The notes beneath the pieces were generated by a model. It did no database searches. It worked only from the letters and a program-made list of their open reading frames with translations, and had not been told where the DNA came from. Shown piece after piece: positions 583-16,370 of a stretch of DNA of 16,370 nucleotides. Positions within the stretch are counted from its first letter, which is position 1, and the number at the start of each line of letters is the position of its first letter. The stretch lies in IMG/VR virus record IMGVR_UViG_2724679059_000001; one strand, given 5' to 3'. Source of the DNA: a virus (taxonomy: Duplodnaviria > Heunggongvirae > Uroviricota > Caudoviricetes). Made by a program: the position numbers and the translations under genes.

Positions 583-878
583 TTATTTTTACCTGTAGTG
601 TAAAAAGATCGTTTCCCTCACAGTCGCTGACTTTCTTAAACAAACTTTAAAAATCAAATAACTATCGACTATTCCTACGATCCACCATCATCTTTTCCCT
701 GCATAATGACGCGCTTATTCGCCAGGTCACCGTTTGCTCTTTAATTGCTGAGTCGATTTATTAGCGGGCATGTTCATTTATAGAGAATCTATTTTTTAAA
801 CTTATTTATTAAAGCTTTTTTCATTCTTCACTGGCGGGTTCTGACGACACTAAACGCTCACTTATCAGGAGATATCGT

Positions 879-1166
879 ATGAAAAAAGTCACTTTTCCCC
901 GGCTTTCCGGCTGGCTGGTCGCTTCCGTCGCGCTGTTTGTCGTGATCGGCTGGACCTCTTCAGCACAGATCCCGGTCGTCATTTATAAACTAAGCCTGGT
1001 TTCGCTTTCCGCGGTTCTGGGATACTGGCTCGATCGCAGTTTGTTCCCCTGGGCACGGCCTGACTCTTTTAGCCCCTGGAAGGAACCGCGTTGCTGCGCG
1101 GCGGCAATGATTCGCCGCGCCATCATCGTTGCCGCCGTCTGTCTTTCCGTCGCCTTAGGGCTATAG
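879..1166 (+). CDS. small membrane protein, candidate holin
   Basis: 95-aa ORF with AGGAG RBS 8 nt upstream. Two to three hydrophobic helices (LSGWLVASVALFVVIGW; LSLVSLSAVLGYWL; AIIVAAVCLSVALGL). Sits immediately upstream of, and overlaps, the lysin gene. Holin role is positional inference only. Confidence 0.5.
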   Translation: MKKVTFPRLSGWLVASVALFVVIGWTSSAQIPVVIYKLSLVSLSAVLGYWLDRSLFPWARPDSFSPWKEPRCCAAAMIRRAIIVAAVCLSVALGL

Positions 1167-1168
1167 TG

Positions 1169-1774: not shown

Positions 1775-1786
1775 TCAGAGGGGCCG

Positions 1787-2101
1787 ATGAAACTCAGTAT
1801 CGATTTTTGGGAAGTGATCTCCCTTATGCTTTCCTTCGTTGGATTAATGTTTGCTGCCGGAAAACTGCTGTTAGCGCAAATTGAAAAACGACTTAATGAG
1901 CGTTTTGAGTCTCTGGAAAATGCCCGCAGGGAATCAGAAACAAGTTGGTCGAAACTGGAAAGAGAGTTTCTTGAATTTCGTGCCGAGCTTCCGCTGCATT
2001 ATGTCCGCAGAGAAGATTATCTTCGTGGGCAAGCAGTATTAGAAGCAAAGCTGGATGCCTTATATAGCAAAATCGAGCTGTTACAACGTGGCAGTTATTA
2101 A
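1787..2101 (+). CDS. membrane-anchored coiled-coil protein, probable lysis accessory (i-spanin- or releasin-like)
   Basis: 104-aa ORF with GAGGGG RBS. N-terminal transmembrane segment (ISLMLSFVGLMFAAGKLLL) followed by a charged, heptad-like helical region. Last gene before a strong terminator. Confidence 0.5.
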   Translation: MKLSIDFWEVISLMLSFVGLMFAAGKLLLAQIEKRLNERFESLENARRESETSWSKLEREFLEFRAELPLHYVRREDYLRGQAVLEAKLDALYSKIELLQRGSY

Positions 2102-2107
2102 ATACAT

Positions 2108-2140
2108 CCCCACCTTTACGTAAGTGTGGGGATTTTTTAT
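2108..2140 (+). terminator. rho-independent terminator after the lysis cassette
   Basis: GC stem CCCCAC (2108-2113) pairing with GTGGGG (2126-2131), immediately followed by ATTTTTTAT, just after the stop at 2101. Confidence 0.7.
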
Positions 2141-2247
2141 AGCCATTCAATTTTTTCTCTAAATCACATTAAAAGATTCTTCACCTTCACTGCTTCATAA
2201 TACATCTCAACGATAACGAAGTGAGCGGTAATTAAGGTACACCTCAT

Positions 2248-2703
2248 ATGAAAATTTTATCTGCAATGAATTATGTCATGGTCAAATTACGTGATCGGCA
2301 TCCTGAAATGGATATATTTATTTCATCTACGGATGCCCAGAAATATATTCCACAGACACAACAAGTTGCAGTGATTATTAATTATAGCGGTTCTGTCTTT
2401 ACCACACCCGAAAGCAGTGATGCCATCGTGCAACAGCAAATACTCCGCTTAACCGCCACCGTTATTGTTGACAAAAATTGTGACGCGTTAAACGCACTTG
2501 ATTGCATACGCAGCGCATTGGGCGGCCTTCAGCTTCCTGATTGCGATCGTCTGCTTTGGCTTGAAAAAGAAATTAATACGGGTGAGAGCGGCGGTTTCTG
2601 CCGCTACATCCTGGAAATGGCGACCAGCTCGCTGTTTATCGCTGAACAGGAAAGCACGGATCTTCCCCTGCTTACGGAAGTTAACTACGAGGAAACTGAA
2701 TGA
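2248..2703 (+). CDS. phage tail-associated protein (Mu gp37-like, possible tail completion or terminator protein)
   Basis: 151-aa ORF, first gene of the tail block. Its stop overlaps the next start (ATGA at 2700-2703). Family assignment is from gene order and recollection, not a search. Confidence 0.5.
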   Translation: MKILSAMNYVMVKLRDRHPEMDIFISSTDAQKYIPQTQQVAVIINYSGSVFTTPESSDAIVQQQILRLTATVIVDKNCDALNALDCIRSALGGLQLPDCDRLLWLEKEINTGESGGFCRYILEMATSSLFIAEQESTDLPLLTEVNYEETE

Positions 2704-2897
2704 AATACATCTACAACGGCCCGGCAAGCGGCGTCACCCTTGCCGATGGACAAGAAATCTTATTGTGGCCGAACAGTGAAATTGATCTGCCAGAAGACAA
2801 CGAGTGGGTCATGACCATGATTGCCCGCAATCATCTGACTCCTGTCATCACTCAGGAAGAACAAAATAACGTAGAGGAAATTGTACATGGCAGCTAA
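2700..2897 (+). CDS. small conserved phage tail-module protein (Mu gp38-like)
   Basis: 65-aa ORF, translationally coupled on both sides (ATGA overlap upstream; overlaps the sheath start). Acidic protein. Function unknown. Confidence 0.5.
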   Translation: MKYIYNGPASGVTLADGQEILLWPNSEIDLPEDNEWVMTMIARNHLTPVITQEEQNNVEEIVHGS

Positions 2898-4311
2898 TTA
2901 CCTGCACGGTGTAGAAACCATTGAAATTGAAACCGGCCCGCGTCCGGTTAAAGCGGTAAAATCCGCCGTCATCGCTTTAATCGGTACGGCCCCCTGCGGT
3001 CCGGTAAATAAACCAACATTATGCCTTTCTGAAAGCGATGCTGCGCAGTTTGGCTCGACTCAGGCTAACTTTACGATCCCACAGGCACTGAAGGCGATTT
3101 ATGACCACGGTGCCGGTACGGTGGTGGTGATTAACGTGCTGGATCCGGCAAAACATGGCTCCAACATCAGCAATGAGAGTATCACTTTTGACGCTAACAA
3201 CCAGGCGAAGCTCGCTCACCGCAATGTGCGTAACGTGGTACTAAAGCCCTCTTCATCAAATTCATCAACCTTTAACACCGCAGCATTTAGCGTAGATGAA
3301 CAAACAGGCATAATTACCCGTAAAGGAGCCGACATTCCTCCTGGTGCGAAAGTTTGCGCCTATTATTCCTGGTGCGACCCTACAAAGGTCACCGCAGCCG
3401 ATATTATCGGTGCCGTAAATACCGCAGGCGACCGCACGGGGATGAAACTCCTTCAGGACACCTATAACCTGTACGGTTTCTACGCCAAAATCCTGCTTGC
3501 TCCCGTGTTTTGTACGCAAAAATCAGTAACTACTGAGCTGATTGCACAAGCGGAAAAACTCGGTGCGCTTACCTACATTGATGCTCCGATTGGGACGACA
3601 TTCCAGCAGGTATTGGCTGGACGCGGTTCGCAAGGGGCTATCAACTTCAATACCAGCTCTGATCGTGTGCGTTTATGTTACCCACACGTCAAAGTTTACG
3701 ATGGCATCACTAACCAGGAAGTTCTCGAACCACTCTCTTCGCGCGCTGCCGGGCTACGTGCCAAAGTAGACCTCGAAAAAGGTTTCTGGTGGAGCAACTC
3801 AAACCAGGAAATTCAGTGTATTACCGGTATTGAACGTTCGCTTTCTGCAATGATTGATGATCCACAAAGCGAAGTGAATCAGCTCAACGAAAACGGCATT
3901 ACCACTATTTTCAATAGTTACGGTTCTGGTCTGCGCTTGTGGGGCAACCGCACAGCGGCATGGCCTACCGTGACCCATATGCGTAACTTTGAAAACGTTC
4001 GCCGGACAGGCGATGTAATTAATGAGTCAATCCGTTATTTCAGTCAGCAGTATATTGATATGCCGATTAATCAGGCTCTTATTGACGCGCTGACCGAATC
4101 GGTAAATACCTGGGGCCGAAAACTGATTGCCGACGGCGCACTGCTTGGCTTTGAGTGCTGGTACGATCCGGCGCGAAATTCACCGGCTGAACTCAGCGCC
4201 GGGCATTTATTGCTTAGCTATAAATTCACCCCGCCGCCGCCGCTGGAACGTCTGACGTTTGAAACTGAAATTACTTCTGAATATTTAGTCTCTCTGGAGA
4301 GCAATAGCTAA
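2887..4311 (+). CDS. contractile tail sheath protein (P2 FI / Mu L-like)
   Basis: About 474 aa, the size and position expected for a myovirus sheath, immediately before the tube gene. GAGGAAA RBS before ATG 2887; the longest ORF begins at TTG 2881. Confidence 0.85.
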   Translation: MAANYLHGVETIEIETGPRPVKAVKSAVIALIGTAPCGPVNKPTLCLSESDAAQFGSTQANFTIPQALKAIYDHGAGTVVVINVLDPAKHGSNISNESITFDANNQAKLAHRNVRNVVLKPSSSNSSTFNTAAFSVDEQTGIITRKGADIPPGAKVCAYYSWCDPTKVTAADIIGAVNTAGDRTGMKLLQDTYNLYGFYAKILLAPVFCTQKSVTTELIAQAEKLGALTYIDAPIGTTFQQVLAGRGSQGAINFNTSSDRVRLCYPHVKVYDGITNQEVLEPLSSRAAGLRAKVDLEKGFWWSNSNQEIQCITGIERSLSAMIDDPQSEVNQLNENGITTIFNSYGSGLRLWGNRTAAWPTVTHMRNFENVRRTGDVINESIRYFSQQYIDMPINQALIDALTESVNTWGRKLIADGALLGFECWYDPARNSPAELSAGHLLLSYKFTPPPPLERLTFETEITSEYLVSLESNS

Positions 4312-4835
4312 TGGCTGGAAAAATTCAAATTAACCGTATTACCAACGCCAATATTTATCTCGATGGTAATAATCTTTTAGGTCGTGCAACCGAAATTAAA
4401 TTGCCGGATGTCAGTTTAATTATGCAAGAGCATAAAGCACTGGGTATGGTCGGTAAAATCGAACTCCCGGCTGGTTTCGATAAACTGGAGGGGGAAATTA
4501 AATGGAACTCCTTTTATCAGGACGTAATGCGTAAAACGGCAAACCCGTGGCAGGCAGTAGCATTACAGTGCCGCTCCAGTATTGATTGCTATAACTCCCA
4601 GGGGAAAGCGAATCAATTAGCGTTAGTGACACATTTAACCGTGATGTTTAAAAAGAATCCCTTGGGCACATTTAAACAGAATGAAAACCCGGAATTCAGC
4701 AGCGCCTTTGGTTGTACTTATATTAAACAAGTGGTCGATGGTGAAACGCTGCTTGAACTTGATTATATGGCGAATATTTTTCGGGTTAACGGCGTGGATC
4801 AATTAAGTACCTATCGCAATAACATCGGTGGCTAA
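4311..4835 (+). CDS. tail tube protein (P2 FII / Mu M-like)
   Basis: 174-aa ORF; start overlaps the sheath stop (TAATG). Size and position match tube proteins. Confidence 0.8.
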   Translation: MAGKIQINRITNANIYLDGNNLLGRATEIKLPDVSLIMQEHKALGMVGKIELPAGFDKLEGEIKWNSFYQDVMRKTANPWQAVALQCRSSIDCYNSQGKANQLALVTHLTVMFKKNPLGTFKQNENPEFSSAFGCTYIKQVVDGETLLELDYMANIFRVNGVDQLSTYRNNIGG

Positions 4836-4839
4836 ATTA

Positions 4840-4859
4840 TTCGGGGCTACGGCCCCGAA
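4840..4859 (+). other. intra-operon RNA stem-loop after the tube gene
   Basis: Perfect 8-bp stem TTCGGGGC / GCCCCGAA with a 4-nt loop, directly after the tube stop; no U-tract follows. Possible mRNA stabiliser or partial attenuator after the abundant sheath and tube genes. Confidence 0.4.
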
Positions 4860-4885
4860 CTTCGCAACATAAATAAGGATACAAA

Positions 4886-5203
4886 ATGAAAGAGCATTAT
4901 ATCTTACAGTTCCCATTTACGTCGGCAGCAGGAAATACTATCGACTCGCTGCAATTACGTCGCCTGAAAGTAAAAGATATGCGCAACGCGCGCCGGATCA
5001 GCGAAAAACCCGAAGAGTGGGATGAACCGCTAATGGCGGCGATGACCGGACTGGTGCCAGAAGATTTAGCTGAAATGGATTTGCTGGATTACCAGGCATT
5101 GCAGAAACGATTTCAATCCATGCTTACCGTGGTTACAGAATCCTCCCCAGCTATGGCAGGCAATGGCGCTACTGGCGAGATGGTTTCGCTTTCCACCCAG
5201 TGA
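4886..5203 (+). CDS. tail assembly chaperone (P2 gpE-like)
   Basis: 105-aa acidic protein between the tube and tape-measure genes, the canonical chaperone position. AAGGA RBS. Confidence 0.6.
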   Translation: MKEHYILQFPFTSAAGNTIDSLQLRRLKVKDMRNARRISEKPEEWDEPLMAAMTGLVPEDLAEMDLLDYQALQKRFQSMLTVVTESSPAMAGNGATGEMVSLSTQ

Positions 5204-5392
5204 GATAGACGCGCTCACCATAGATGACTTTAGCAACTGGCTGGATGAAGCCAGCGACCAAATAAAGATCGAATATGGCTCGCAGACCTGATGTCTGCGA
5301 GTTCTTCAAAGCCCGCCAGGTTTATTTCTTCCCAGCCCCTTTTTTAGAAAAATAACCAGTGGGCCATTATCAATAATTAAAGAGAAACAATT

Positions 5393-6274
5393 TTGGCCAA
5401 CGATATTATTACCCAGCTTCAGGCGCGTAATGAGACGTTGACGCAGGCAATAGCCCGTTACGGCTCACTCAACGCCAGAACTTTGTTAGCTCTCTCTTCT
5501 CAGCAAGCGACAGTAATCAAACTAACGCAGCAACTTGCCGATTCTGCTCTCCGCCTGGAGGAAAATAGCCGGAACCGCGCTGATCTAATGGAGAAAACCC
5601 AAACATTTGCCGGGCAATTTAGCAAGGTATTCAATGTTGAAGCCCCCGACTGGAAGTTGCCATATGAGTTCCAGGACAACATGGTCAATATGGCGACCAA
5701 AGGTGGGATGAATGCTACAACCCGCGAGACGCTCAGCCTTAATCTGCGCGACTGGAGCATGGATTTTAACCAGCAGCAGACCACCTTACAGAACGCAGCC
5801 CAAACGCTGATCGAAGGCAATTTGTCGTCGATGCAGGATCTCAACCGTTATATGCCGGAGATCGCCAAAGCTGCCACCGCCACGCGCGAAAGTGCTGAAA
5901 CGTGGGCGAATGCCGCGCTCGCGACTCATGATCGATTGAATATTGCCCCGGAAAATTTCCACGCCACGCAAAACATGATGTATGGCATTAGCAAAAGCGG
6001 TGGGCCTGCCGTTGCCGAACAAACGCAGTGGATAGAGAAATTTGCAGGTAAAACCGGCGCTCAGGGTCTGGAAGGTATGGCTGAACTGACCGCCATCATG
6101 CAGATCGCCATGAAAAACGGGGCCAGCGCCAGTGCGGCGGCGGAGAATTTCGACCACTTTCTGCAAACCACCTTTTCGAAAAAACCGATAACTGGTTCGC
6201 CAGCCAGGGCGTTGATCTGCAAGGCTCTCTGCTTGAGCATCAGCAAAACGGTATGGGTGTTAGCGAAGCCATGA
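5393..6274 (+). CDS. tail tape measure protein, N-terminal part (gene apparently frameshifted)
   Basis: Ala/Gln-rich helical protein in the tape-measure position, starting at TTG 5393. The frame ends at 6274 while the continuation runs in another frame from an A6 tract at 6179-6184. Confidence 0.65.
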   Translation: MANDIITQLQARNETLTQAIARYGSLNARTLLALSSQQATVIKLTQQLADSALRLEENSRNRADLMEKTQTFAGQFSKVFNVEAPDWKLPYEFQDNMVNMATKGGMNATTRETLSLNLRDWSMDFNQQQTTLQNAAQTLIEGNLSSMQDLNRYMPEIAKAATATRESAETWANAALATHDRLNIAPENFHATQNMMYGISKSGGPAVAEQTQWIEKFAGKTGAQGLEGMAELTAIMQIAMKNGASASAAAENFDHFLQTTFSKKPITGSPARALICKALCLSISKTVWVLAKP

Positions 6275-7767
6275 CTCATATCGTGCAAATGCAGCTTGAG
6301 AAGATGAATCCGGCGATCCTCGGCACCTTCAAACGCACTATGCAGATTGAAGATTTATCTGCTCGCAGCAATGCGCTGCAATCGATGGTGACGCAATTTA
6401 ATCTGGGCGAAATGTTCGGCGATGCGCAAACTGTGGAATTCCTGGCACCTATGCTGGCGAATATGGAGGAATATCGCCAGTTAAAAGCCTCTGCCATGCA
6501 AGCCAGCAGCAAGAATCTGATTGATGCCGACTTTTCTGCGCAAATGGCCTCGCCCATTGAACAGACTAAAGCGTTACAGCTGGCGTTAAATGATTTATGG
6601 CTCAGCATTGGCTTGCAATTAATGCCGCTGATTGGCGAGCTGGCACAAAGCCTTACGCCGGTTGTTCGCCAGTTCAGCGCCTGGCTACGTGAGCACCCGG
6701 CACTGGTGCAAAACATTGCGAAAATCGTCGGGGCGATTTGGCTGTTTAACGGCGCGCTGAATGTTTTAAAACTGGGCGCGAACTTCATCGCCTCGCCGTT
6801 TATTCGTCTGGTCGATATCTTCCTGAAAGTCAGGGCAAGTCTGGCACTCACAGGCGGGGCAAGTAAGATGCTATCAGCGGTTAAGTCATTGGGTGGCGGT
6901 GCAAAATGGCTAACGCAACTGCTTGGTCGTGGCCTGATTGGCGCACTGAAACAGGCAGGTCAGACCGTCTTCTGGTTGGGTAGGGTTTTATTGATGAATC
7001 CCATTGGTCTGGTCATCACTGCGATTGCGGGCGCTGCTTATCTGATTTATCGCAACTGGGAGCCTATCTCCAGGTTCTTTTCTACCATCTGGCAACGTAT
7101 CACCACGGCCTTTGACGGCGGCATTGCAGAAATTTGTCGGTTAATTCTCGACTGGTCGCCGCTGGAGTTGTTCTATAGCGCCTTTTCCAGTGTGATGAAT
7201 TGGTTTGGTGTTGAAATGCCTGCGAGTTTTAGCGAGTTCGGCAGCAATCTTCTGGCTAGCCTGGCCGACGGCATAATGAATGCCTTCCCCGCTCTGAAAG
7301 GCATTATTGATCAGGTCAAAAACGTCATCCCAGACTGGCTAAAAACCACGATGGGTATTAGTACAGAAGGATCGGCTACAGCTATTACAAGCACGACTAA
7401 TACCGCATCCGTCTCCCCCGCGAGCGTTGTTCCAGGCGTTGCCGGTGCGATTTTAACGCCTCCGGTGGGGAAACAACTCGCGCCATCCAGTAAAACGACA
7501 ACGCCGCCATCGGCACCTGCGGCAAAAAATACAGCCGCCAAACCCGCATTGGCCTCTTTACCTGGTAAATCCGTAACCAAACCGGCGACGCTACCTTCCC
7601 GTTCCTCTGGAAAAGTTCAGGTGAATTTTTCGCCACAGATTACCGTGCAGGGTAACGGACAAAACACCACTAAAGAGATTCAGAACGTGTTGACGATGAG
7701 TAAACGCGAACTTGAAAGAATGATTAACGACGTAATGGCGCAACAACAGCGCCGGGGGTATGCCTGA
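6253..7767 (+). CDS. tail tape measure protein, C-terminal part
   Basis: Frame open from 6085; contains hydrophobic, glycine-containing segments and a Thr/Pro/Ala-rich tail typical of tape measure proteins. Ends with TGATG overlap onto the next gene. Adding one A at 6179-6184 fuses it to the upstream ORF. Confidence 0.65.
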   Translation: MGVSEAMTHIVQMQLEKMNPAILGTFKRTMQIEDLSARSNALQSMVTQFNLGEMFGDAQTVEFLAPMLANMEEYRQLKASAMQASSKNLIDADFSAQMASPIEQTKALQLALNDLWLSIGLQLMPLIGELAQSLTPVVRQFSAWLREHPALVQNIAKIVGAIWLFNGALNVLKLGANFIASPFIRLVDIFLKVRASLALTGGASKMLSAVKSLGGGAKWLTQLLGRGLIGALKQAGQTVFWLGRVLLMNPIGLVITAIAGAAYLIYRNWEPISRFFSTIWQRITTAFDGGIAEICRLILDWSPLELFYSAFSSVMNWFGVEMPASFSEFGSNLLASLADGIMNAFPALKGIIDQVKNVIPDWLKTTMGISTEGSATAITSTTNTASVSPASVVPGVAGAILTPPVGKQLAPSSKTTTPPSAPAAKNTAAKPALASLPGKSVTKPATLPSRSSGKVQVNFSPQITVQGNGQNTTKEIQNVLTMSKRELERMINDVMAQQQRRGYA

Positions 7768-8720
7768 TGTATGCCGTTTTAGGAGAGATTGAATTTAAGG
7801 TTGTCGCATTCTGGGACGGCTTTAAAAGCACAATGGGCGTGGATTACGCCACACATGCCCGTATAGAAGGCAAACCCGGTGTGCAGTTTATTGGCGATAA
7901 GCTGGATATGCTGGCGCTGGAATTTTCCCTGCACAGCCAGTTTTGCCAGCCCACAACAGAGCTTAATCGACTGCGTGAAGCCATGCTTGCTCACAAGGCG
8001 ATGGCACTGGTATTTGGCAATGGCGATTATCGCGGCTGGTTTGTAATTACGGAGCTAACCGCCACCCACCAGCACACCGATCCCTGGGGCAATGTGATTG
8101 CCCAAAACGGAACGATGTCGCTCCAGGAGTACACCGGCGATCCTAAAAATCCACTTTTACCTCCGGCGATTACCACCCAGGAGCCTAACATTGAGGAAAA
8201 GGCGAGCGATTTTCCCGACATGGTGGAGTCCTGGTTTGATCAGATATTAAACGCCATCGAAGAAGGTATGCGTAAGGCCAAAGAGATGCTGGATGAACTG
8301 ACACAAGCCATTGAAGATATTAAAAAAACGGTGGCAAAAGTGAAAGCAATGATTAAAGAGGCCAAAGTGTTAAAAGAAAAGTGTGAAAAGATAATTACGT
8401 CATTGAAAAAGACAATCGACGCCATCGAAACCCTGTTTAAACAGCCAATGGATCTGCAAACGCTGGCAGGACTCCCAAAAGCGTTGTCGGCGCAGATTAA
8501 AACTTTACTGGGTAACATGCCAGGTATCCGGGACTGCGCCAATGACGCCAGTACACTGGTTGACCATGCTCAGGCGCTTTTCGACGACATTACCAGCGAC
8601 ATCGCCGAAGCGACGTTTGATAAAGCCGCAACGTTGGTTGATCAGGCACGAACAACGGTACAACAAACCACTCCCACAGTGAGCCAGCTTGCTGCCGCGA
8701 CCATTACGAGGATCTGGTGA
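7767..8720 (+). CDS. tail protein with P2 gpU-like N-terminal domain and Lys/Glu-rich helical C-terminal extension
   Basis: 317-aa ORF between the tape-measure and gpX/gpD genes, the gpU position in P2-type order. C-terminal ~170 aa is K/E-rich and encoded by a visibly AT-rich stretch (about 8220-8480). Confidence 0.55.
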   Translation: MYAVLGEIEFKVVAFWDGFKSTMGVDYATHARIEGKPGVQFIGDKLDMLALEFSLHSQFCQPTTELNRLREAMLAHKAMALVFGNGDYRGWFVITELTATHQHTDPWGNVIAQNGTMSLQEYTGDPKNPLLPPAITTQEPNIEEKASDFPDMVESWFDQILNAIEEGMRKAKEMLDELTQAIEDIKKTVAKVKAMIKEAKVLKEKCEKIITSLKKTIDAIETLFKQPMDLQTLAGLPKALSAQIKTLLGNMPGIRDCANDASTLVDHAQALFDDITSDIAEATFDKAATLVDQARTTVQQTTPTVSQLAAATITRIW

Positions 8721-8929
8721 TGCGATACCTTGAACATATCACCACCGACGGCGAACGCTGGGATAATCTGGCATGGCATTACTACGGTGATGCGCTGGCT
8801 TATGAACGCATAATCGTCGCCAATCCACATGTCGCCATTTACCCGGTACTGCCTTCCGGTATTCAGCTCATTATTCCGGTCATTTCCGTCAATAAAACCT
8901 TATCGGAGATCCCACCATGGCTGAGATAA
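8720..8929 (+). CDS. tail protein X (P2 gpX-like, LysM-like)
   Basis: About 70 aa with the YYGD...ANP...LP.G pattern typical of gpX; overlaps the flanking genes. Confidence 0.7.
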   Translation: MRYLEHITTDGERWDNLAWHYYGDALAYERIIVANPHVAIYPVLPSGIQLIIPVISVNKTLSEIPPWLR

Positions 8930-9957
8930 GCGTAACTGGTGGCGTCTTTGCCACACTCACGCCCATTTTTACCCTCTGGTATGGGCATAAAGATATCACT
9001 TATGACATCACACCCTATGTCACCAGCATCAGTTACCACGACAGCATCAAAAACGAGTCAGATACCATCGCGATTACACTGGATGACACCGATGGACGCT
9101 GGATAAAAGAGTGGTATCCCGGCAAAGGCGATACGCTGGCGCTGCATATGGGTTATCAGGGGGAAAAGCTGCTCGATTGTGGTCAGTATATTATTGATAA
9201 AATTGATATTTCAGCGCCACCTTCTACGGTAAATATTGATGGCATCGCCACTTCCGTCAATCAGGCGCTGCGTACCCGTAACAGCCAGGGCTTTGAAGAA
9301 ACGACGCTTTCGGCTATCGCCAGCCGTATCGCCCAAACGCACGGTCTGAAACTGGTGGGCAAAATCGAGCCGCTCACCATCGACCGGGTAACGCAGTATG
9401 GTGAAACCGATGTCGGATTTCTCAAGCGCCTGGCCAGCGAATATGGCTATGCGGTAAAGGTGACCACCAAAGAACTGATTTTTTCGCATTTACCCACGCT
9501 GCGCTGCCTGGCGCCGGTAAAAACGATCGACCGCAAAGACGTTTCGCATTTCACCTTCAAAGATACCATTAACCGTATCTACAAAAATGCCACCGTACAG
9601 CATCAAAATAGTAAGAAAAAAGAACTGGTTATCTACACCCACGACAGCCAGCAAAAACCGTCTACCCGTGGAGTCGGCACCAGTGCCGACACGCTAAAAC
9701 TGAACAGTCGGGCGCCGGACGTTGGCGCGGCACAGGCAAAGGCCAACGCCGCGCTCGACAGCCACAACGAATATCAACAAACCGGAACGCTCAGGATGAT
9801 GGGCTGCCCGGAACTGACGGCGGGCAATAAAATTGAACTGACCGATTTTGGCGTGCTTTCCGGTCAGTGGCTGATTGATAAATCGACTCACAGTTTTGTG
9901 CGCAGCGGCTATACCACTGAAATCGACGTGTCACGCGGGCCAGCGACCAGCCAGTAA
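8917..9957 (+). CDS. baseplate hub / tail protein D (P2 gpD-like)
   Basis: 346-aa ORF directly after the gpX-like gene, the conserved X-D order. Size and position fit the hub protein. Confidence 0.8.
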   Translation: MAEISVTGGVFATLTPIFTLWYGHKDITYDITPYVTSISYHDSIKNESDTIAITLDDTDGRWIKEWYPGKGDTLALHMGYQGEKLLDCGQYIIDKIDISAPPSTVNIDGIATSVNQALRTRNSQGFEETTLSAIASRIAQTHGLKLVGKIEPLTIDRVTQYGETDVGFLKRLASEYGYAVKVTTKELIFSHLPTLRCLAPVKTIDRKDVSHFTFKDTINRIYKNATVQHQNSKKKELVIYTHDSQQKPSTRGVGTSADTLKLNSRAPDVGAAQAKANAALDSHNEYQQTGTLRMMGCPELTAGNKIELTDFGVLSGQWLIDKSTHSFVRSGYTTEIDVSRGPATSQ

Positions 9958-9966
9958 GGAGGAAAT

Positions 9967-10668
9967 ATGAAAGGAGTAACCCGTCAAACGGGGATTATCA
10001 GCGATATTGACGAAACCAGCGTTCGGGTGCGAGTCACGCTTCCGGAGTGTGACAATCTGAAGAGCAACTGGCTTGCGGTACTTCAACGCAATTCCCAGGA
10101 CAATAAAGACTACTGGCTACCGGATATGGGCGAGCAAGTGGAAGTTCTGCTGGACAATAACGGTGAAGATGGCGTGGTGCTGGGCGCAGTTTATTCTACG
10201 GTTGACACCGCGCCTGTGGCCTCGCGCGATAAACGTTACGTCCAGTTTTCTGATGGCGCAGCGTTTGAATATGACCGCAGCACCCACCAGCTGACGATTA
10301 ACGGCGGTATCGAGAAAATCGTGATTGAGGTTATCGACAGTACCCGCCTGACATCACCCAACGTTGAGATTAAAGCCCAACAGGTCACCGTGACTTCCGA
10401 TACCGTCGATATTAAAGCGACCGATGTCAGCATCGACGCCACTAAGGTCGATGTTAAAGCGGCAGCAGTGACGGTAGATGCGCCCATGAGCACCTTTACT
10501 GGCAATGTCACGGTAATGAAAAAACTCACCTGGCTTGGCGGGATGGCAGGAAGTGGAGGCATCGGTAACGCCGCCACGATAACTGGCAATGTCAACGTGA
10601 TCGGCAACGTTCAGGCCAGCGGCGCATTGCAGGACAGCGGTGGCAACTCCAACCACCATACACACTGA
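9967..10668 (+). CDS. baseplate central spike (P2 gpV / T4 gp5-like)
   Basis: Perfect AAGGAGG RBS. N-terminal OB-like region followed by beta-helix repeats (VTVTSDTVDIKATDVSIDATKVDVKAAAVTVDAP) and a His-rich C-terminus (NSNHHTH), consistent with a metal-binding spike apex. Confidence 0.85.
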   Translation: MKGVTRQTGIISDIDETSVRVRVTLPECDNLKSNWLAVLQRNSQDNKDYWLPDMGEQVEVLLDNNGEDGVVLGAVYSTVDTAPVASRDKRYVQFSDGAAFEYDRSTHQLTINGGIEKIVIEVIDSTRLTSPNVEIKAQQVTVTSDTVDIKATDVSIDATKVDVKAAAVTVDAPMSTFTGNVTVMKKLTWLGGMAGSGGIGNAATITGNVNVIGNVQASGALQDSGGNSNHHTH

Positions 10669-10673
10669 CGTTT

Positions 10674-10703
10674 AACCCGCCTGATGGCGGGTTTTCTCTT
10701 TTT
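10674..10703 (+). terminator. rho-independent terminator inside the tail cluster, between spike and wedge genes
   Basis: Stem AACCCGCC (10674-10681) / GGCGGGTT (10686-10693) with loop TGAT, followed by the T-rich run TTCTCTTTTT, 6 nt after the spike stop. Confidence 0.6.
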
Positions 10704-10766
10704 AATCAATCAGTTTTCTAAATCGCTTTAATATCGCCACAGCCCGTTCAGGGCGAAAATACCCTC

Positions 10767-11126
10767 ATGAACACAAAAACACGACCCTCAACGCTGCACT
10801 GGCAACCGGCCTTGCAGCGGCCTGAAGAATACGTCTGCGGACTGGATGATATTCACCAGGCAATACACATCATTCTGCGCACACCGCGCGGCAGTGATCC
10901 CCACAGACCGCTGTTTGGCAGCAACTTGTGGCACTACATCGATTACCCCATCGAGCGGGCAATTCCGCATGTGGTACGGGAGTCGGTGGAAGCCATCCGC
11001 CAGTGGGAGCCGCGCTGTCGGTTGCTGAAGGTGACACCAGTAATCGACGGCGAACATCTGACGTTACGTGTGCAATGGCGCGCCGCTGACGGCGTTATCA
11101 ACTCAACGGAGGTGTTATGGCGATAG
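10767..11126 (+). CDS. baseplate wedge protein (GPW / gp25 family)
   Basis: 119-aa ORF with gp25-like motifs (ILRTPRGSDPHRPLFGSNL...WEPR). Confidence 0.85.
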   Translation: MNTKTRPSTLHWQPALQRPEEYVCGLDDIHQAIHIILRTPRGSDPHRPLFGSNLWHYIDYPIERAIPHVVRESVEAIRQWEPRCRLLKVTPVIDGEHLTLRVQWRAADGVINSTEVLWR

Positions 11127-12232
11127 CCGAACCCAATTTTATTGACCGCGATCCTGCGCAAATTACCAGTGAGATGATTGCGCAATACGAAGATGCCAGC
11201 GGTAAAAAACTCTATCCGGCACAGGCTGAGCGGTTGCTCATCGACCTGTTTGCCTATCGTGAAAACCTTGTACGCATCGCCATTCAGGAAGCGGCGAAAC
11301 AGAACCTGGTCGCGTATTCCCGCGCGCCAATGCTGGATTATTTAGGGGAGTTGGTGGGCGTTCACCGTTTGCCTGCGCAGCCGGCAAAAACGACGTTGCA
11401 GTTTTCGGTCGTCAGCGCGTATACCAGCAATATCCTGATTCCCCAGGGAACGCGGGCCAGTGCCTCTGATAGCGTGATGTTCGCCACCGATGAAGATGTT
11501 CTGCTTCCGGCCAGGAGTTTGCATATCGCCGTTCCTGCCACCAGCCTCGCAGCAGGTGAACAGGGTAACGGCTGGCAGCCTGCACAAATTAGCGCACTGG
11601 TCGACAGGATTGGTCATTATGACATCAACGTAACCAACCTGACTGCGTCAACGGGCGGCTGCGGTGAAGAGAGCGATGACGCATTGCGCCAGCGTATCCA
11701 ACTGGCACCAGAAAGCTTTAGTAATGCGGGCAGCTATGGTGCCTACCGCTTTCATACGCTTTCTGTTAGCCAGTCGATTATTGACGTTGCAGTACTGGGG
11801 CCGGACGAGGGATTGCCAGAAGGCTGCGTGGAGATCTACCCGCTAACTCTGAACGGACTGCCGGGAATAGAACTGCTCGCGCAAATTGAACAGGAGGTTA
11901 GCAAGGAGAAAAAACGTCCGCTGACCGACAAAGTGAGTGCGAAATGCGCTCTTCGAGTGCCATATGAGATCCGTGCGCAGCTAACGCTGTTTACCACCGC
12001 CGATCAGGAGACAACGCTGGCTGCAGCGCGTAAAGCGATTAGCCTCTGGACGCAACAGCGGCAGAAACATCTGGGGCAGGACATTGTGCCAAACCAGATA
12101 ATCAAAGTGTTACAGGTCGATGGCGTCTATGACGTTGCGCTGAATATGCCTACAAAACGTATTTTGCAGGCGCATGAGTGGGCGGAATGCACCGCAATAG
12201 ACGTCACGATTGCCGGAGTCAGCGATGGATAA
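11117..12232 (+). CDS. baseplate protein J (P2 gpJ / T4 gp6-like)
   Basis: 371-aa ORF in the W-J-I order; overlaps both neighbours. Confidence 0.85.
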   Translation: MAIAEPNFIDRDPAQITSEMIAQYEDASGKKLYPAQAERLLIDLFAYRENLVRIAIQEAAKQNLVAYSRAPMLDYLGELVGVHRLPAQPAKTTLQFSVVSAYTSNILIPQGTRASASDSVMFATDEDVLLPARSLHIAVPATSLAAGEQGNGWQPAQISALVDRIGHYDINVTNLTASTGGCGEESDDALRQRIQLAPESFSNAGSYGAYRFHTLSVSQSIIDVAVLGPDEGLPEGCVEIYPLTLNGLPGIELLAQIEQEVSKEKKRPLTDKVSAKCALRVPYEIRAQLTLFTTADQETTLAAARKAISLWTQQRQKHLGQDIVPNQIIKVLQVDGVYDVALNMPTKRILQAHEWAECTAIDVTIAGVSDG

Positions 12233-12857
12233 ATTGCTGCCACCGCCGCCGCTTGCCAGCGATGAGCGTTTTTCGATTCTGGCAAATATCGCCGCCGAGC
12301 GTTTTGCCCAACTCGATCTGACGGCGTTGATGGTTTATCTGATCGACCAGGTTGATGCTTCGGCATTACCAGCCCTTGCAGAACAATTTCACGTTCAGGG
12401 GCTGGAAGGTTGGTTATTTACCACCGATGAGCGGGAGAAACGCGAGTTAATTAAACAAGCCATTGAACTGCATAAATATAAAGGAACAATTTGGGCGGTG
12501 CGGCGGGTGCTGGAAATACTCTCATTACCAGGAACTATTTCAGAATGGTTTGAATATGGGGGAAGGGCTTATTTTTTTAAGGTGGATATAGCGCTGGTGG
12601 ATAAAGGCCTGGATGAAAACCTTTTCAATGATTTGGTAGAACTCATTCATGAATATAAAAACACACGTTCAAAACTGGAAGCATTAATCGTCTGGATCAT
12701 TAACCAAAGTGCTATTCCTGTTATTGGCTGTGCACTTTATGGTGGTGAACTGACGACGGTTTTACCTTTCCAGATACGGGAAGTACAGCACAACACATCG
12801 ATTTATTACGGAACAGGGCAATGGAGCCTTGAAATTACATCTATTTACCCGGAGTAA
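12225..12857 (+). CDS. tail protein I (P2 gpI-like)
   Basis: N-terminal LLPPPPLASDERFSILANIAAERF and a KGT motif match the gpI family from memory. ATG 12225 overlaps the J stop; the longest ORF starts at TTG 12210. Confidence 0.8.
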   Translation: MDKLLPPPPLASDERFSILANIAAERFAQLDLTALMVYLIDQVDASALPALAEQFHVQGLEGWLFTTDEREKRELIKQAIELHKYKGTIWAVRRVLEILSLPGTISEWFEYGGRAYFFKVDIALVDKGLDENLFNDLVELIHEYKNTRSKLEALIVWIINQSAIPVIGCALYGGELTTVLPFQIREVQHNTSIYYGTGQWSLEITSIYPE

Positions 12858-12859
12858 TT

Positions 12860-14518
12860 ATGGACAATGAGTTTTATACTCTACTCACCGACAGGGGAAT
12901 GGCAAAAATTGCCAATGCTCTGGCGGATAAAAAACAGCTTCATCTACAAAAAATGGCTGTTGGTGACAGCGGAGGACAATATTATGAACCCACCGTCAGC
13001 CAAACTAAATTACGCCATGAAGTATGGCGCGGTGATTTAAATACATTAACAGTTGCACCCAATAACCCTAACTGGTTAATTGCGGAACTCGTGCTGCCCG
13101 AAAATATCGGCGGCTGGTATGTACGTGAAGTCGGCGTTTTTGATACCGATGGTGAACTCATTGCTATCGGTAAATTCCCGGAGTCGTATAAACCACTATT
13201 ACCCGGCGGCAGCGGTAAGCAAGTTTGCATTCGCCTGATTATGGAAGTTTCCAACACGACTGCGGTAACACTCACCGTTGACCCCAGTATTGTACTGGCA
13301 ACACGGGATTATGTTGATTCACAACTGGATGAACATGAGCGTTCGACTAATCATCCTGATGCTACGTTAACGCAAAAAGGCTTTACACAGTTGAGTAACG
13401 CCACTGACAGTGATGACGAAACCAAAGCGGCTACGCCAAAAGCGGTGAAAGCGGCAATGATTGAGGCTCGAAATCATCGTCATACCTGGAGTCAGATTAC
13501 TGATATACCAGATGGTACGCTGACACAAAAAGGGATTGTGAAGCTTAATAACGCGACAGACAGCAACAGTACGACGGAGGCGGCGACACCGAGCGCGGTG
13601 AAGGCGGCATATGACCTGGCGAATAGTAAGGCTGCGGGAAACCATACTCACCCATGGGGACAGATTACGGGTGTTCCAGACGGCACCCTGTCGCAAAAAG
13701 GGATTGTGAAGCTTAATAACGCGACGGATAGCAACAGTACGACGGAGGCGGCGACACCGAGCGCGGTGAAGGCGGCAATGGATAAGGCAAAAACTGCAGC
13801 TCCAGCTAATCATACCCACACTAGTTTTTATACTACAAATGGAACATTTATAGTTCCTGAGGGCGTAACAATATTATTTGTGGAAATTATGGGCGGCGGA
13901 GGTGGGGGGGCCGGAGGAGCACAATCATCACATTATGAAGCCTGCGGAGGTAATGCAGGAGAATTGATTGTTGATTACTTAAACGTGGCACCAGGCCAGC
14001 ATTTTTCAGTAAAGATCGGAGCTGGAGGTAATGGAGGTCCTTTTTGGAACAATCCACCTGTTTCACAAATAAAGTATTCGTATGATAAAACAGAGACAAC
14101 ACAAAAAAGCTTTGATGGTGGAGACTCTTCGTTTTCTAATCTAACTGCAAAAGGTGGCCATGGAGGATATAACATTTATCACTCTAACACTACGCAGCCT
14201 TATATAAAATTCAGTGACGATCCTAAAGGTACTCCACCAAATGCAATACCGTCATCTGCAGAATTTTATCCTGGAAAGAATGGTGAAAATTCTATATATG
14301 GAAAGGGAGGGGCTTCAGGTACTGTTATTACAGAAAACCTAAGTAATGGTGGAAAAAAAGCAGTAATGGCAAAGCCAACAGCAGCAACAGGTTATGGTTC
14401 TGGAGGAGCTGGGGGATCTTATTTACCTCCTTTTCAATATAAAAATAATGAGTTAACAAATTTAGGCAATACTAGCGGAACAAAAGGTGCCTCTGGCTTC
14501 GTAAAAATATCATGGTAA
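12860..14518 (+). CDS. tail fiber protein: P2 gpH / R-pyocin-fiber-like N-terminus, tandem fiber repeats, glycine-rich C-terminal receptor-binding domain
   Basis: N-terminal ~150 aa (LLTDRGMAKIANALA...MAVGDSGGQ...AELVLPENIGGWYVREVGVFDTDGELIAIGKFPESYKP...ATRDYVDSQL) matches the conserved baseplate-attachment domain of P2 gpH-type fibers. Three fiber repeats (TLTQKGIVKLNNATDS...AATPSAVKAA) follow, then an AT-rich Gly-rich C-terminus. Confidence 0.85.
   Translation: MDNEFYTLLTDRGMAKIANALADKKQLHLQKMAVGDSGGQYYEPTVSQTKLRHEVWRGDLNTLTVAPNNPNWLIAELVLPENIGGWYVREVGVFDTDGELIAIGKFPESYKPLLPGGSGKQVCIRLIMEVSNTTAVTLTVDPSIVLATRDYVDSQLDEHERSTNHPDATLTQKGFTQLSNATDSDDETKAATPKAVKAAMIEARNHRHTWSQITDIPDGTLTQKGIVKLNNATDSNSTTEAATPSAVKAAYDLANSKAAGNHTHPWGQITGVPDGTLSQKGIVKLNNATDSNSTTEAATPSAVKAAMDKAKTAAPANHTHTSFYTTNGTFIVPEGVTILFVEIMGGGGGGAGGAQSSHYEACGGNAGELIVDYLNVAPGQHFSVKIGAGGNGGPFWNNPPVSQIKYSYDKTETTQKSFDGGDSSFSNLTAKGGHGGYNIYHSNTTQPYIKFSDDPKGTPPNAIPSSAEFYPGKNGENSIYGKGGASGTVITENLSNGGKKAVMAKPTAATGYGSGGAGGSYLPPFQYKNNELTNLGNTSGTKGASGFVKISW
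13369..13790 (+). repeat. in-frame tandem repeat array inside the tail fiber gene (3 copies, about 168-bp period)
   Basis: 13526-13609 and 13694-13777 are 82/84 nt identical; a more diverged copy lies at about 13369-13450. Each encodes a T..KG(I/F)..L.NATDS...AATP.AVKAA unit followed by an H-x-H motif. Confidence 0.75.
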
Positions 14519-14524
14519 TTAAAA

Positions 14525-15139
14525 ATGACAAAATATGCTTGTTTTGATCCTGAAACATTTATCGTTCTGGACTGGATCGATACAGAACACTACAACTATC
14601 CTAAAGTAGAACATTTAGTTGAAATAACTGATCAGCAATGGCAGACATATGCGAAAGCTAATATCCCAATTTGGATTAACTGTGAAGATTTATCCTTTAT
14701 CTCTACGCCACCACCAGATAGATTTCACAAACTAAAAAAAGGAGAATGGATAGTTGATACAGATTCAATGCTTAAATTTATTTCAGAAATAAAAGCGGAT
14801 ATAATAAGAAGAATAAAATCCAAACGGGATTACGTCACAACCGATTACATCATCATCAACAACCATCACTTCCACAGTGATACAAACAGCCGTATCCAAC
14901 AGCTCTCACTCACAAAAATGGGAGCGGAGAAAAAAATCCCTCCAGGGTTAATGTGGAAAACTAAAAATAACGGTCTGATCGAGTTAACCAACGAGATCGC
15001 CGCCCAGTTTGAATCGGTAACAATGGATCACGATATGCGCCTGTTCGCCAATGCCCAGCACCATATCGCGGCGGTGGAAGCTCTGGACGATATTCAGGCG
15101 GTGCTCGACTACGATTATTCAACAGGCTGGCAAGCATGA
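14525..15139 (+). CDS. tail fiber assembly protein (P2 gpG / Mu U-like chaperone)
   Basis: 204-aa ORF immediately after the fiber. The C-terminal half (FANAQHHIAAVEALDDIQAVLDYDYSTGW) resembles the conserved Tfa region; the N-terminal half is AT-rich like the fiber tip. Confidence 0.8.
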   Translation: MTKYACFDPETFIVLDWIDTEHYNYPKVEHLVEITDQQWQTYAKANIPIWINCEDLSFISTPPPDRFHKLKKGEWIVDTDSMLKFISEIKADIIRRIKSKRDYVTTDYIIINNHHFHSDTNSRIQQLSLTKMGAEKKIPPGLMWKTKNNGLIELTNEIAAQFESVTMDHDMRLFANAQHHIAAVEALDDIQAVLDYDYSTGWQA

Positions 15140-15591
15140 GTAAAACCACTGTCTGGCTCGCTTGTTATAAGGGCCGAACAGAGCACCGTGGTATTGCCCG
15201 ACTGGCTGACTGGCTTACCCGTAAAATCACGCGCGGTAGTTATTCCCACTGTGAATTAGCCGTTAAGCATGGTGAAAAGAGTTACCTTTGTTACTCTGCA
15301 TCACTGCGCGATCGCGGTGTACGCGGAAAGATAATGCCATTGCCAGCGGATAAGTGGGATATGCTGCCGCTCCAGGCCAGCCTTCAGGACGTGGAAGCGT
15401 TTTTCCATAAACATGATGGCAAAAAATATGATTGGCGCGGCGCGCTTGGAATTATTACCGGTAATAAAGAACAGCGTGAACGCCTGTTTTGCAGCGAATT
15501 TTGTGCCGAATTTCTGCAATTAAAGGAGAGTTGGCGCTATTCCCCAAACCACTTGTACGCTTTAGTCAGTAGCTGGCAATATCAGCCGTAA
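15136..15591 (+). CDS. hypothetical Cys/His-rich protein; cargo gene translationally coupled to the tail-fiber assembly gene
   Basis: 151-aa ORF whose ATG overlaps the Tfa stop (ATGA at 15136-15139). Contains SHCE and FCSEFC motifs; I do not recognise the family with confidence. Confidence 0.5.
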   Translation: MSKTTVWLACYKGRTEHRGIARLADWLTRKITRGSYSHCELAVKHGEKSYLCYSASLRDRGVRGKIMPLPADKWDMLPLQASLQDVEAFFHKHDGKKYDWRGALGIITGNKEQRERLFCSEFCAEFLQLKESWRYSPNHLYALVSSWQYQP

Positions 15592-15596
15592 AATAA

Positions 15597-15617
15597 CGCC
15601 GGGCTTCACGCCCGGCG
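15597..15617. terminator. hairpin terminator shared by the convergent genes
   Basis: Perfect 8-bp stem CGCCGGGC (15597-15604) / GCCCGGCG (15610-15617) with a 5-nt loop. On the - strand it is followed by TTATTTTA, so it reads as an intrinsic terminator for the nucleotidyltransferase gene; it sits 6 nt after the + strand stop at 15591. Confidence 0.55.
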
Positions 15618-16370
15618 CATTACCGTCTGGTACAGTAAACTATCCAGTTCTTTAACGTCCCCTTCCCGGCTGTCTGGTAACAGCGGAGGAATTTCCCCGC
15701 GCGCCAGTTCCGCACGAATAAACGCATGTAACAAAGGACGGCGCAGTCCATATTCCGCTTCACCCGCACGCTGTTTACGCTCCAGCAATTCATCTATTTC
15801 TGCGCGTAATGCCGCATCCAACTCACTTCCCGCCAGCAATTCGGAAAAACGCATTGGCGGTACACCTTTTCCCGCTTCAACCCAACGAACGGCCAGCAGC
15901 GGGCGCAGCACGTAAAAGTATTTTTTCAGTCGAACTTCATCGCCCTGCAAATATCCGCGGAAGTTTTTCTGCGCCATCGAATAGTAATGCCAACGCGCAC
16001 GCAGCGGAGAAAACCACGTTGGGACCATTGCCTTAAGCGCCGTTATCGTTTCTTCATCTTGTTGATAGACCACCGGAGAATCCAGCCATTCTATCAGCGT
16101 CGGGTTCGCGCCTTTCAATAATCCCAGCGCCTTACGCCACTCCCAACCGGAAACATCTAACTCGTCATCGATGGGCAGCTCGATAACATCGCGCGGTGAC
16201 TCTACTCGCAGATACCATTCCAGCGGGTGAACATACAAAAACCGTACATCGTAGTCGCTGTCGGGCGAGGCAAATCCCCAACCGCGACTCCCTGATTCAC
16301 AGGCGTACAATACTTTCACATCATACCGCCGTTCAATTTCTTTTAACTGCTGCGATACCCTTTCGCGCAT
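15606..16370 (-). CDS. nucleotidyltransferase-domain protein (pol-beta superfamily)
   Basis: 254-aa ORF; ATG is the last three bases of the window, stop at 15606-15608. N-terminal G-S-x10-D-x-D motif (CESGSRGWGFASPDSDYDVRF) is the classic pol-beta nucleotidyltransferase signature, followed by a helical C-terminal domain. Confidence 0.75.
   Translation of the reverse strand: MRERVSQQLKEIERRYDVKVLYACESGSRGWGFASPDSDYDVRFLYVHPLEWYLRVESPRDVIELPIDDELDVSGWEWRKALGLLKGANPTLIEWLDSPVVYQQDEETITALKAMVPTWFSPLRARWHYYSMAQKNFRGYLQGDEVRLKKYFYVLRPLLAVRWVEAGKGVPPMRFSELLAGSELDAALRAEIDELLERKQRAGEAEYGLRRPLLHAFIRAELARGEIPPLLPDSREGDVKELDSLLYQTVMRRA

Follow-up and report, generated by a model that had tools for sequence, protein, structure and literature searches.

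A predicted permuted NlpC/P60 enzyme encoded directly behind the tail-fibre chaperone in phages and in an Escherichia coli tail cluster

The window analysed here is a DNA stretch of 16,370 nucleotides (nt) from the IMG/VR virus record IMGVR_UViG_2724679059_000001 (Caudoviricetes). Its last plus-strand gene (15136..15591) encodes a protein of 151 amino acids (aa) that we call PPNE, for the circularly permuted papain-like NlpC/P60 enzyme that we predict it to be. PPNE is the third member of a fibre/chaperone/PPNE module. The module is headed by a tail-fibre gene (12860..14518, plus strand) whose 552-aa product matches Pfam Phage_tail_fib, Phage_fiber_2 and Gly_rich_2 and consists of a collar N terminus, fibre repeats, and a Gly-rich C-terminal domain. 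The middle gene (14525..15139, plus strand) encodes a 204-aa tail-fibre chaperone with a DUF4376 domain at residues 88-196 (Pfam PF14301, E = 4.6e-13), and it also falls in the PHROG 'tail fiber/tail protein' families. The PPNE start codon (ATG, 15136-15138) shares its three bases with the end of the chaperone gene, whose stop codon is TGA (15137-15139). This ATGA overlap (15136..15139, plus strand) is predicted to couple translation of the enzyme to that of the chaperone. A preliminary description of this DNA had reported the 151-aa open reading frame (ORF), its last position on the plus strand and the ATGA overlap, and all of these can be read directly from the sequence.

A scan ahead of the PPNE gene found nothing promoter-like above shuffle expectation, although such a consensus scan is weak evidence. 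In the terminator scan, PPNE had no terminator of its own. The G+C-rich hairpin with a T-run that begins 5 nt past its stop codon (15596..15618, minus strand) belongs to the next gene, a convergent nucleotidyltransferase gene (15606..16370, minus strand), and forms the right edge of the tail cluster.

PPNE is a soluble, basic protein of 17.6 kDa (pI 9.3). It has no signal peptide or transmembrane segment, and none of its 19-residue windows comes near membrane hydrophobicity. The ORF is a real gene under strong purifying selection, with dN/dS of 0.03-0.10 against orthologues at 74-96% amino-acid identity. A first homologue search returned 91 clusters (90% identity). The family profile then matched 4,723 clusters (50% identity) at E ≤ 1e-3 and 1,972 at E ≤ 1e-10. 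Almost all of the best 150 of the 4,723 clusters are single-domain proteins of 135-180 aa.

Scans of the window protein against Pfam (E ≤ 1) and NCBIfam gave no match. A profile of 69 homologues matched 3kw0, the Bacillus cereus protein BcPPNE (E = 4.7e-5), and 2if6, the E. coli protein YiiX. In the profile alignment, the YSH and FCSE motifs of the PPNE family fall on the catalytic His and Cys of these two proteins. A comparison with the YiiX-family profile by hhalign gave a probability of 84% and an E value of 7e-6. We also searched with an AlphaFold2 (AF2) model of PPNE (pLDDT 82.9). The only significant Foldseek match in the PDB was again 3kw0, and the matches among viral structures were all uncharacterised proteins. 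The model has a papain-like α+β core that is circularly permuted, because the strands carrying the His precede the helix carrying the Cys. The preliminary description had guessed at a permuted papain fold of the NlpC/P60 superfamily from the His-before-Cys order and the C-S-E-F motif. Sequence profile, profile-profile comparison and fold comparison agree on that guess, and the two residues coincide with the catalytic pair of YiiX and BcPPNE. PPNE is thus best described as a putative circularly permuted papain-like NlpC/P60 enzyme of the YaeF/YiiX type. The homology to YiiX and BcPPNE is visible to profile methods only. Because the family lies below the threshold of Pfam PF05708 (Peptidase_C92), we treat it as a branch of its own, so far without a model, among the YaeF/YiiX-like permuted NlpC/P60 proteins. 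The fold and chemistry are of a known kind, and the family itself is uncharacterised and has no Pfam model. The preliminary description had named a match to a known tail structural or chaperone protein as evidence against an accessory function, and no such match was found in Pfam, NCBIfam or the PDB.

The family carries a different name in the databases. In PHROGs it falls under phrog_1128, whose label is 'enoyl-CoA hydratase/carnithine racemase-like', and the enoyl-CoA hydratase name is also borne by homologues in GenBank phages and genomes. We rejected this identity. No crotonase or enoyl-CoA hydratase was present among the Pfam matches of PPNE and its 69 homologues, or among the PDB sequence and fold matches of PPNE, and the crotonase fold needs more than 151 aa. 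The label stems from inherited annotation, and the family is mislabelled.

PPNE contains five Cys (10, 39, 52, 119, and 123) and six His (17, 38, 45, 91, 93, and 139). The motifs SHCE (37-40), YLCYSAS (50-56) and FCSEFCAEF (118-126) are present as first described. Among these Cys and His, the only invariant pair is Cys119 and His38, and Tyr98 and Trp74 are likewise found in all 233 of 233 family members. Glu40 (231/233), Arg63 (229/233), Ser56 (228/233) and Glu121 (225/233) are nearly invariant, and Ser54 is present in 211. The other Cys are replaceable: Cys39, Cys52 and Cys123 become V, S, I or A in 20-35% of members, and most members have Ala in place of Cys10. Therefore, the "Cys/His-rich" character of the protein reduces to one predicted catalytic dyad. 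For the same reason, we discarded a Zn- or disulfide-based protein as an explanation of the Cys and His content. A lipoprotein reading of WLAC (residues 7-10) was also rejected, as there is no hydrophobic leader, Cys10 is not conserved, and the model puts residues 6-12 in a core strand.

The predicted catalytic base is His38 in the YSH motif (codon 15247..15249, plus strand), which aligns with His49 of both BcPPNE and YiiX. The predicted nucleophile is Cys119 in the FCSE motif (15490..15492, plus strand), which aligns with Cys154 of BcPPNE and Cys128 of YiiX. In the AF2 model, Cys119 sits at the N terminus of helix 119-126, and His38 lies on strand 36-44, which probably pairs with strand 50-56 as a hairpin. 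NlpC/P60 enzymes conserve a fourth active-site residue, a Tyr (Tyr127 in BcPPNE and Tyr115 in YiiX) (PMC3142127). Its likely counterpart is Tyr98 in KKYDW (15427..15429, plus strand), which aligns with the Tyr115 of the PYD motif of YiiX. Conservation makes Glu40, Ser54 and Ser56 (codons within 15253..15303, plus strand) candidates for the third, His-orienting polar residue, and the near-invariant Glu40 sits two residues after His38. Judged from alignment and model, the active site appears complete and the enzyme catalytically competent. Most of the conserved side chains near the site carry a charge or are polar (D59, R63, K65, D75, D99, and E121), so a specificity for lipids is not assured.

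The closest relatives of known structure are YiiX and BcPPNE, which belong to PF05708. They share with PPNE the motifs YSH (His), P/K-Y-D (Tyr) and xCSE (Cys), and BcPPNE additionally shares a stretch of the form S-x-x-D-x-GVR. However, PPNE is 40 to 50 residues shorter (151 aa versus 202 aa for YiiX and 189-214 residues for the 3kw0 chain), has a Ser in place of their triad Glu64 together with the Glu two residues past the His, and is encoded in phage tail-fibre modules, whereas theirs are chromosomal housekeeping genes. YiiX was co-crystallised with a fatty acid and BcPPNE with a lysine in the active site; their physiological substrates are unknown, and a role as a lipid or N-acyl-amino-acid amidase has been proposed (PMC3142127).

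More distant permuted enzymes point to the same type of chemistry. LRAT and PLAAT are acyltransferases and phospholipases (PMC3142127; PMC12994826; PMC7387801). They (PLAAT being the H-RAS-like suppressor type) and the picornavirus 2A H-box/NC proteins have the same permuted His-then-Cys order and thioester mechanism. PPNE differs from them in having FCSE rather than an NCEHF-type motif and in lacking a C-terminal membrane anchor, and its fold scores to this type are far below those to YiiX. The bacterial permuted NlpC/P60 proteins TseH and Tox-Act1, effectors of the type VI secretion system, and Staphylococcus aureus LnsA likewise act on fatty-acyl linkages: Tox-Act1 and TseH are phospholipases that attack membrane lipids in bacterial conflicts (PMC12994826), and LnsA takes part in lipoprotein N-acylation (PMC7387801). 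These three are secreted or act in the periplasm and have an immunity or membrane partner, whereas PPNE has neither a secretion signal nor an immunity-like neighbour and lies in another genomic setting. All characterised permuted NlpC/P60 enzymes use a Cys-His acyl-thioester on fatty-acyl esters or amides (PMC3142127; PMC12994826; PMC7387801). We therefore read PPNE, by analogy, as a putative thiol acyl-hydrolase or acyltransferase; Cys-His acyl-thioester chemistry of one of these two kinds, acting late, is the most likely.

Two other groups of phage proteins resemble PPNE in part. The lambda gpK-type tail-tip proteins and the tail NlpC/P60 or CHAP lysins are also papain-like Cys-His enzymes among tail genes. 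Their topology is the canonical one, without permutation; they belong to the virion or are fused to tail proteins, and their target is peptidoglycan. They were never the top sequence or fold match of PPNE. The genes for T5 Llp, phi80/N15 Cor and P2 Z/fun lie just downstream of receptor-binding or fibre-assembly genes. Their products are small lipoproteins or membrane proteins, separately expressed and matched to one receptor. PPNE, by contrast, is soluble, is encoded by a gene coupled to that of the chaperone, and shows no co-variation with the fibre tip.

To describe the neighbourhood of PPNE across phages, we assembled 160 enzyme loci from viral contigs and from bacterial contigs representing one genome per species; 155 had enough upstream sequence. 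In about 149 of the 155, a fibre-assembly-type ORF of about 180-270 aa ends at the enzyme start and itself lies behind a large fibre gene. By their C-terminal domains, 76 of these upstream ORFs are DUF4376 proteins, 40 belong to a second type, and the remaining 33 or so are Caudo_TAP or other. Two loci from the same Phytobacter genomic region (L014 and L087) have the enzyme directly behind the fibre. According to ORF coordinates, the 4-nt overlap between chaperone and enzyme recurs in 62 related loci. The preliminary description had proposed to compare co-occurrence with stand-alone occurrence, and distant homologues in jumbo or large phages do stand alone. The 40 loci of the second type and the 33 or so with Caudo_TAP or other ORFs exclude an exclusive partnership with DUF4376. 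Because the chaperone partners span several types, a DUF4376-specific substrate is unlikely. The fibre tips upstream of the enzyme are similarly diverse, with at least five folds (gp37_C, Collar, Gly_rich_2, S74-like, and lambda-J-like), and we therefore rejected specificity for one tip fold.

The reverse search gave the same association. An alignment of six chaperone sequences was searched against viral contigs, and the enzyme gene lay directly downstream in 60 of 67 DUF4376-chaperone loci. The other seven loci (L203, L205, L216, L231, L232, L237, and L240) are of Pasteurellaceae type and carry a phrog_3342 gene that starts at or before the chaperone stop. Its product, of unknown function, has a hydrophobic N-terminal part and conserved Cys and His, and it may be an alternative occupant of the functional slot of the enzyme. 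DUF4376 proteins are proven tail-fibre chaperones in Alteromonas phages V22 and A5 (PMC10579305, PMC7289586). The DUF4376-type chaperones found here end with a near-invariant Y-D-Y-S-x-G-W motif, a few residues before the stop and just ahead of the enzyme start; the motif may reflect protein function or a constraint of the coupled start.

The module occurs in Mu-like, P2/HP1-like and siphovirus prophages. The same order is present in the Haemophilus Mu-like phage SuMu, Pasteurella phage Pm86, where the enzyme gene stands ahead of the tape-measure gene, and Moraxella phage Mcat2, as well as in a phage with a 2,486-aa fibre. In Pseudomonas phage pAN and Acidovorax phage AP1, lysis genes follow. 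In a P2-like prophage the fibre and sheath genes flank the enzyme gene, which is thus in mid-operon among the tail genes, and in an E. coli HP1-like prophage further tail genes lie downstream of it. Therefore, the distal operon end that was thought to be the site of the gene is not a rule, since in these prophages it sits inside the tail operon.

Two single loci are recorded here as side observations. In L124 (5506-6528), from an uncultured Kingella metagenome-assembled genome (MAG), a 340-aa ORF combines the enzyme in frame with a shortened DUF4376 chaperone, and is either a natural fusion or the product of an assembly indel. As this is one case in 160 loci, a Rosetta-stone argument from it would be too weak and was not used. 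L085 (JAEZCC010000043.1), a 6.6-kb contig of a 'Bacillota bacterium' MAG, has a gene whose product matches the E. coli enzyme at 100% identity, and is therefore probably a mis-binned enterobacterial contig.

We found no functional data for the enzyme family in the literature on SuMu, RP12/RP31, DUF4376, YaeF/YiiX in connection with tail fibres, or E. coli Mu-like tailocins, and no description of a systematic coupling of the family to tail-fibre assembly genes in the searchable literature. The sections consulted of the report on Tai/Ati tail-assembly interference (PMC11364771) contain nothing that ties these systems to the enzyme gene, and no sequence comparison with them was made.

Composition and inheritance separate the enzyme from the host-range part of the module. 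The enzyme gene has a GC content of 50-54%, on a par with the tail backbone. In contrast, the region from about 12300 to 14900 has 32-45% GC, versus 50-57% in its flanks. It takes in the fibre gene's distal half and, at the 5' side, two-thirds of the chaperone gene. This AT-rich region is the apparent signature of a recombined host-range cassette, with its right breakpoint inside the chaperone gene. We then compared co-inheritance in 90 non-redundant loci, using enzyme pairs at least 90% identical. In such pairs, the C-terminal 100 aa of the chaperone are 94% identical, whereas the N-terminal part of the chaperone and the fibre tip are 46% identical. By this pattern and the five or more tip folds, the enzyme is inherited along with the module's constant end, independently of receptor specificity. 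A substrate confined to a given fibre tip or to a single chaperone family is therefore less likely, and the lack of co-variation with the tip speaks against exclusion or immunity matched to a receptor, as with Cor or Llp.

The window is 99.8% identical to the chromosome of E. coli strain D7 (L001). Its genes include those for a Mor-type activator, a holin and a lytic transglycosylase, together with a complete contractile-tail set (sheath, tube, tape measure, baseplate V, W, J and I, fibre, and the DUF4376 protein), inserted between lysC and a nucleotidyltransferase/slipin gene pair. No head, replication or integration genes were found in the cluster. Given the full tail set and the absence of these genes, window positions 1-15591 look like a headless Mu-related tail cluster, and the cluster may be an uncharacterised E. 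coli tailocin. The baseplate J gene is present in 195 of 5,426 complete E. coli genomes and the enzyme gene in 198-203. Therefore, the enzyme gene is kept in essentially every copy of the cluster, and the absence from all homologous clusters, which the preliminary description had set against its proposal, is not seen. Purifying selection and retention in a headless cluster argue for a function that benefits the particle or the producing cell, and a function tied to infection or lysogeny is less likely to be kept there.

Several further observations concern this cluster and its right flank. The cluster exists in two sequence lineages: of the baseplate J copies, 44 are at least 99% identical and 151 are 95-99% identical. 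The window fibre is one repeat of about 168 nt shorter than that of D7 (552 versus 608 aa). The tape-measure gene of the window is split into ORFs 5393..6274 and 6253..7767 by a 1-nt deletion in an A-run at about 6178 (A6, versus A7 in D7, where it is a single 2,376-nt coding sequence); the indel is either a sequencing error or a frameshift that inactivates the gene and is possibly slippage-prone. The convergent gene (15596-16370, minus strand) specifies a nucleotidyltransferase of the RlaP family, which resembles DNA polymerase beta. The stop codon of this gene sits in the loop of the strong hairpin terminator, and a slipin-family gene is next in D7. A PADLOC scan of this gene pair gave no match. 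About 1,430 further E. coli genomes (1,632 minus 203) have a partial match to 14400-16370 at 90-95% identity, without the enzyme gene; the part that matches is probably the nucleotidyltransferase gene. In E. coli MSB1_4I (L257, 2753-3565), lysC is followed by IS1, the last 46 nt of the enzyme gene, and the nucleotidyltransferase gene, which IS4 interrupts; the arrangement resembles a deletion of the entire tail cluster associated with IS1.

We propose that PPNE is an accessory enzyme of the tail-fibre module and not a free-riding moron, at a probability of roughly 0.55, a little better than even. In this scenario, ribosomes that finish the tail-fibre chaperone would make the enzyme next, late, through the ATGA coupling. 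The existence of the gene, its fold, the conserved catalytic residues, the linkage to its neighbours and its retention are shown here; the chemistry, late co-expression and a service to particle function are inferred. An acyl-thioester would form on Cys119, as in the characterised permuted NlpC/P60 enzymes, and the acyl group would then pass to water, if the enzyme is a hydrolase, or to an amine or hydroxyl acceptor, if it is an acyltransferase. PPNE would be the constant 3' end of a portable fibre/chaperone/enzyme module, also in the headless E. coli tail cluster, and its substrate would be one that stays constant across receptor specificities. That substrate may be an acyl-linked envelope component (of the lipid, lipoprotein, or lipopolysaccharide [LPS] type) that fibres or particles meet, or it may be the fibre-chaperone complex itself.

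A number of points weigh against this proposal. Adjacency alone could reflect a favoured insertion slot, and the region after tfa is a known cargo site in P2, Mu and lambda. In 7 of the 67 chaperone loci, the slot is held by the 87-96-aa phrog_3342 protein instead of the enzyme. Distant homologues (about 30% identity) stand alone in jumbo and large phages, and the RP31 homologue appears in published gene tables and is not among the listed virion proteins. In Alteromonas phages, fibre folding by DUF4376 chaperones needs no enzyme of this sort (PMC10579305). With its frameshifted tape-measure gene, the cluster copy in the window may not make particles. With respect to the enzyme itself, only 2 of the 69 homologues touch PF05708, the best with E = 0.0053, and hhalign sets Ser54, not the canonical Glu, opposite the triad Glu64 of YiiX.

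The strongest of the alternatives, although rather unlikely, is that PPNE is cargo, a moron that benefits the lysogen. The prophage-expressed enzyme would remodel an envelope lipid, lipoprotein or LPS precursor and so provide superinfection exclusion, phage defence, or a host-interaction trait, and the spot behind tfa would be merely a permissive slot. Such a role fits the position of PPNE as the last gene of the island in the window and ahead of the com/mom accessory region in SuMu, and also the Pasteurellaceae loci without the enzyme, where the phrog_3342 gene lies beside an ORF whose N-terminal sequence is integrase-like by eye. The spot between the fibre and sheath genes in the P2-like prophage is the P2 Z/fun cargo position. 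PHROGs assigns the family to the category 'moron, auxiliary metabolic gene and host takeover', and the relatives Tox-Act1 and TseH hit membrane lipids in bacterial conflicts. However, the usual marks of a moron, namely autonomous expression signals, atypical composition and patchy presence, are not seen for PPNE. The 4-nt coupling to the chaperone is kept in many loci, no promoter rises above shuffle expectation, and there is no terminator of its own. Its GC content is that of the backbone, while the swapped fibre cassette is AT-rich. Its presence is not patchy, since it is found in nearly all of the 195 E. coli copies and in 60 of 67 chaperone loci. It does not co-vary with the receptor-binding tip, contrary to exclusion proteins of the Cor/Llp type, and it has no signal peptide or membrane segment. 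A scan of the enzyme against PADLOC-DB v2 gave no match at E ≤ 0.1, and these analyses gave no sign of the wall-hydrolase, immunity or defence activity that had been suggested for it. Of the earlier interpretation, the coupling to the chaperone gene and the guess at the fold stand. The view of PPNE as distal cargo with no place in the tail programme is not supported in that form, given the near-constant chaperone companion, the backbone GC and the presence in nearly all E. coli copies.

It is improbable that PPNE is an accessory lysis or release enzyme. In this role, PPNE would build up in the cytoplasm as a soluble hydrolase of lipids or lipoproteins, pass through holin lesions to the envelope in the manner of endolysins, and help to break the outer membrane or to free particles from debris. 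The gene does stand directly before holin and endolysin genes in pAN, AP1 and one metagenomic phage, the protein is cytoplasmic and soluble like canonical endolysins, and its enzyme family prefers acyl or lipid substrates. Yet the holin and transglycosylase genes of the window lie 13 kb upstream, at the opposite end of the operon, and SuMu, Pm86 and the HP1-like and P2-like prophages have no lysis neighbours at the enzyme gene. The constant neighbour is the fibre chaperone and not a lysis cassette.

Very improbable, finally, is a counter-defence deconjugase, a papain-fold isopeptidase that would protect fibre assembly by stripping host modifiers such as the ubiquitin-like proteins with which Bil-type systems tag tail fibres: the lysine in the BcPPNE active site (PMC3142127) and the link to fibre genes whatever the tip type would suit it, but the gene is kept in a headless cluster that never infects a cell, contrary to a pure anti-defence role.

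If PPNE is instead the accessory enzyme of the fibre module that we propose, the idea can be extended. The fibre modules of many proteobacterial phages and tailocins might hold a dedicated thiol enzyme that covalently edits something that fibre function needs; in this general form, we consider the idea unlikely. Possible actions are acylation, deacylation or trimming of the fibre-chaperone complex, attack on an acyl linkage in the outer membrane of the target by an enzyme carried on the fibre tip, or removal of modifiers that the host has attached, for example ubiquitin-like tags. If true, covalent editing would be the first enzymatic post-translational step in tail-fibre biology beyond the autoproteolytic chaperone domains.

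The host range of phages and tailocins is determined by the tail fibres together with their chaperones, and engineers exchange these very parts. A large, unmodelled and mislabelled family that is nearly always coupled to the chaperone, and that is kept even in a domesticated headless cluster, suggests that in many phages the standard cassette of fibre plus chaperone lacks a component. Modification of the fibre, the chaperone or the target envelope by the enzyme, if it occurs, would bear on the design of retargeted phages and tailocins, and the bacterial YiiX-type enzymes would gain their first defined biological context. If it proves to be cargo, it would still be a widespread, conserved prophage enzyme of Enterobacteriaceae, Pasteurellaceae, Neisseriaceae and Moraxella, predicted to be directed at lipids or acyl groups. 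Correction of the 'enoyl-CoA hydratase' label is useful under either reading.

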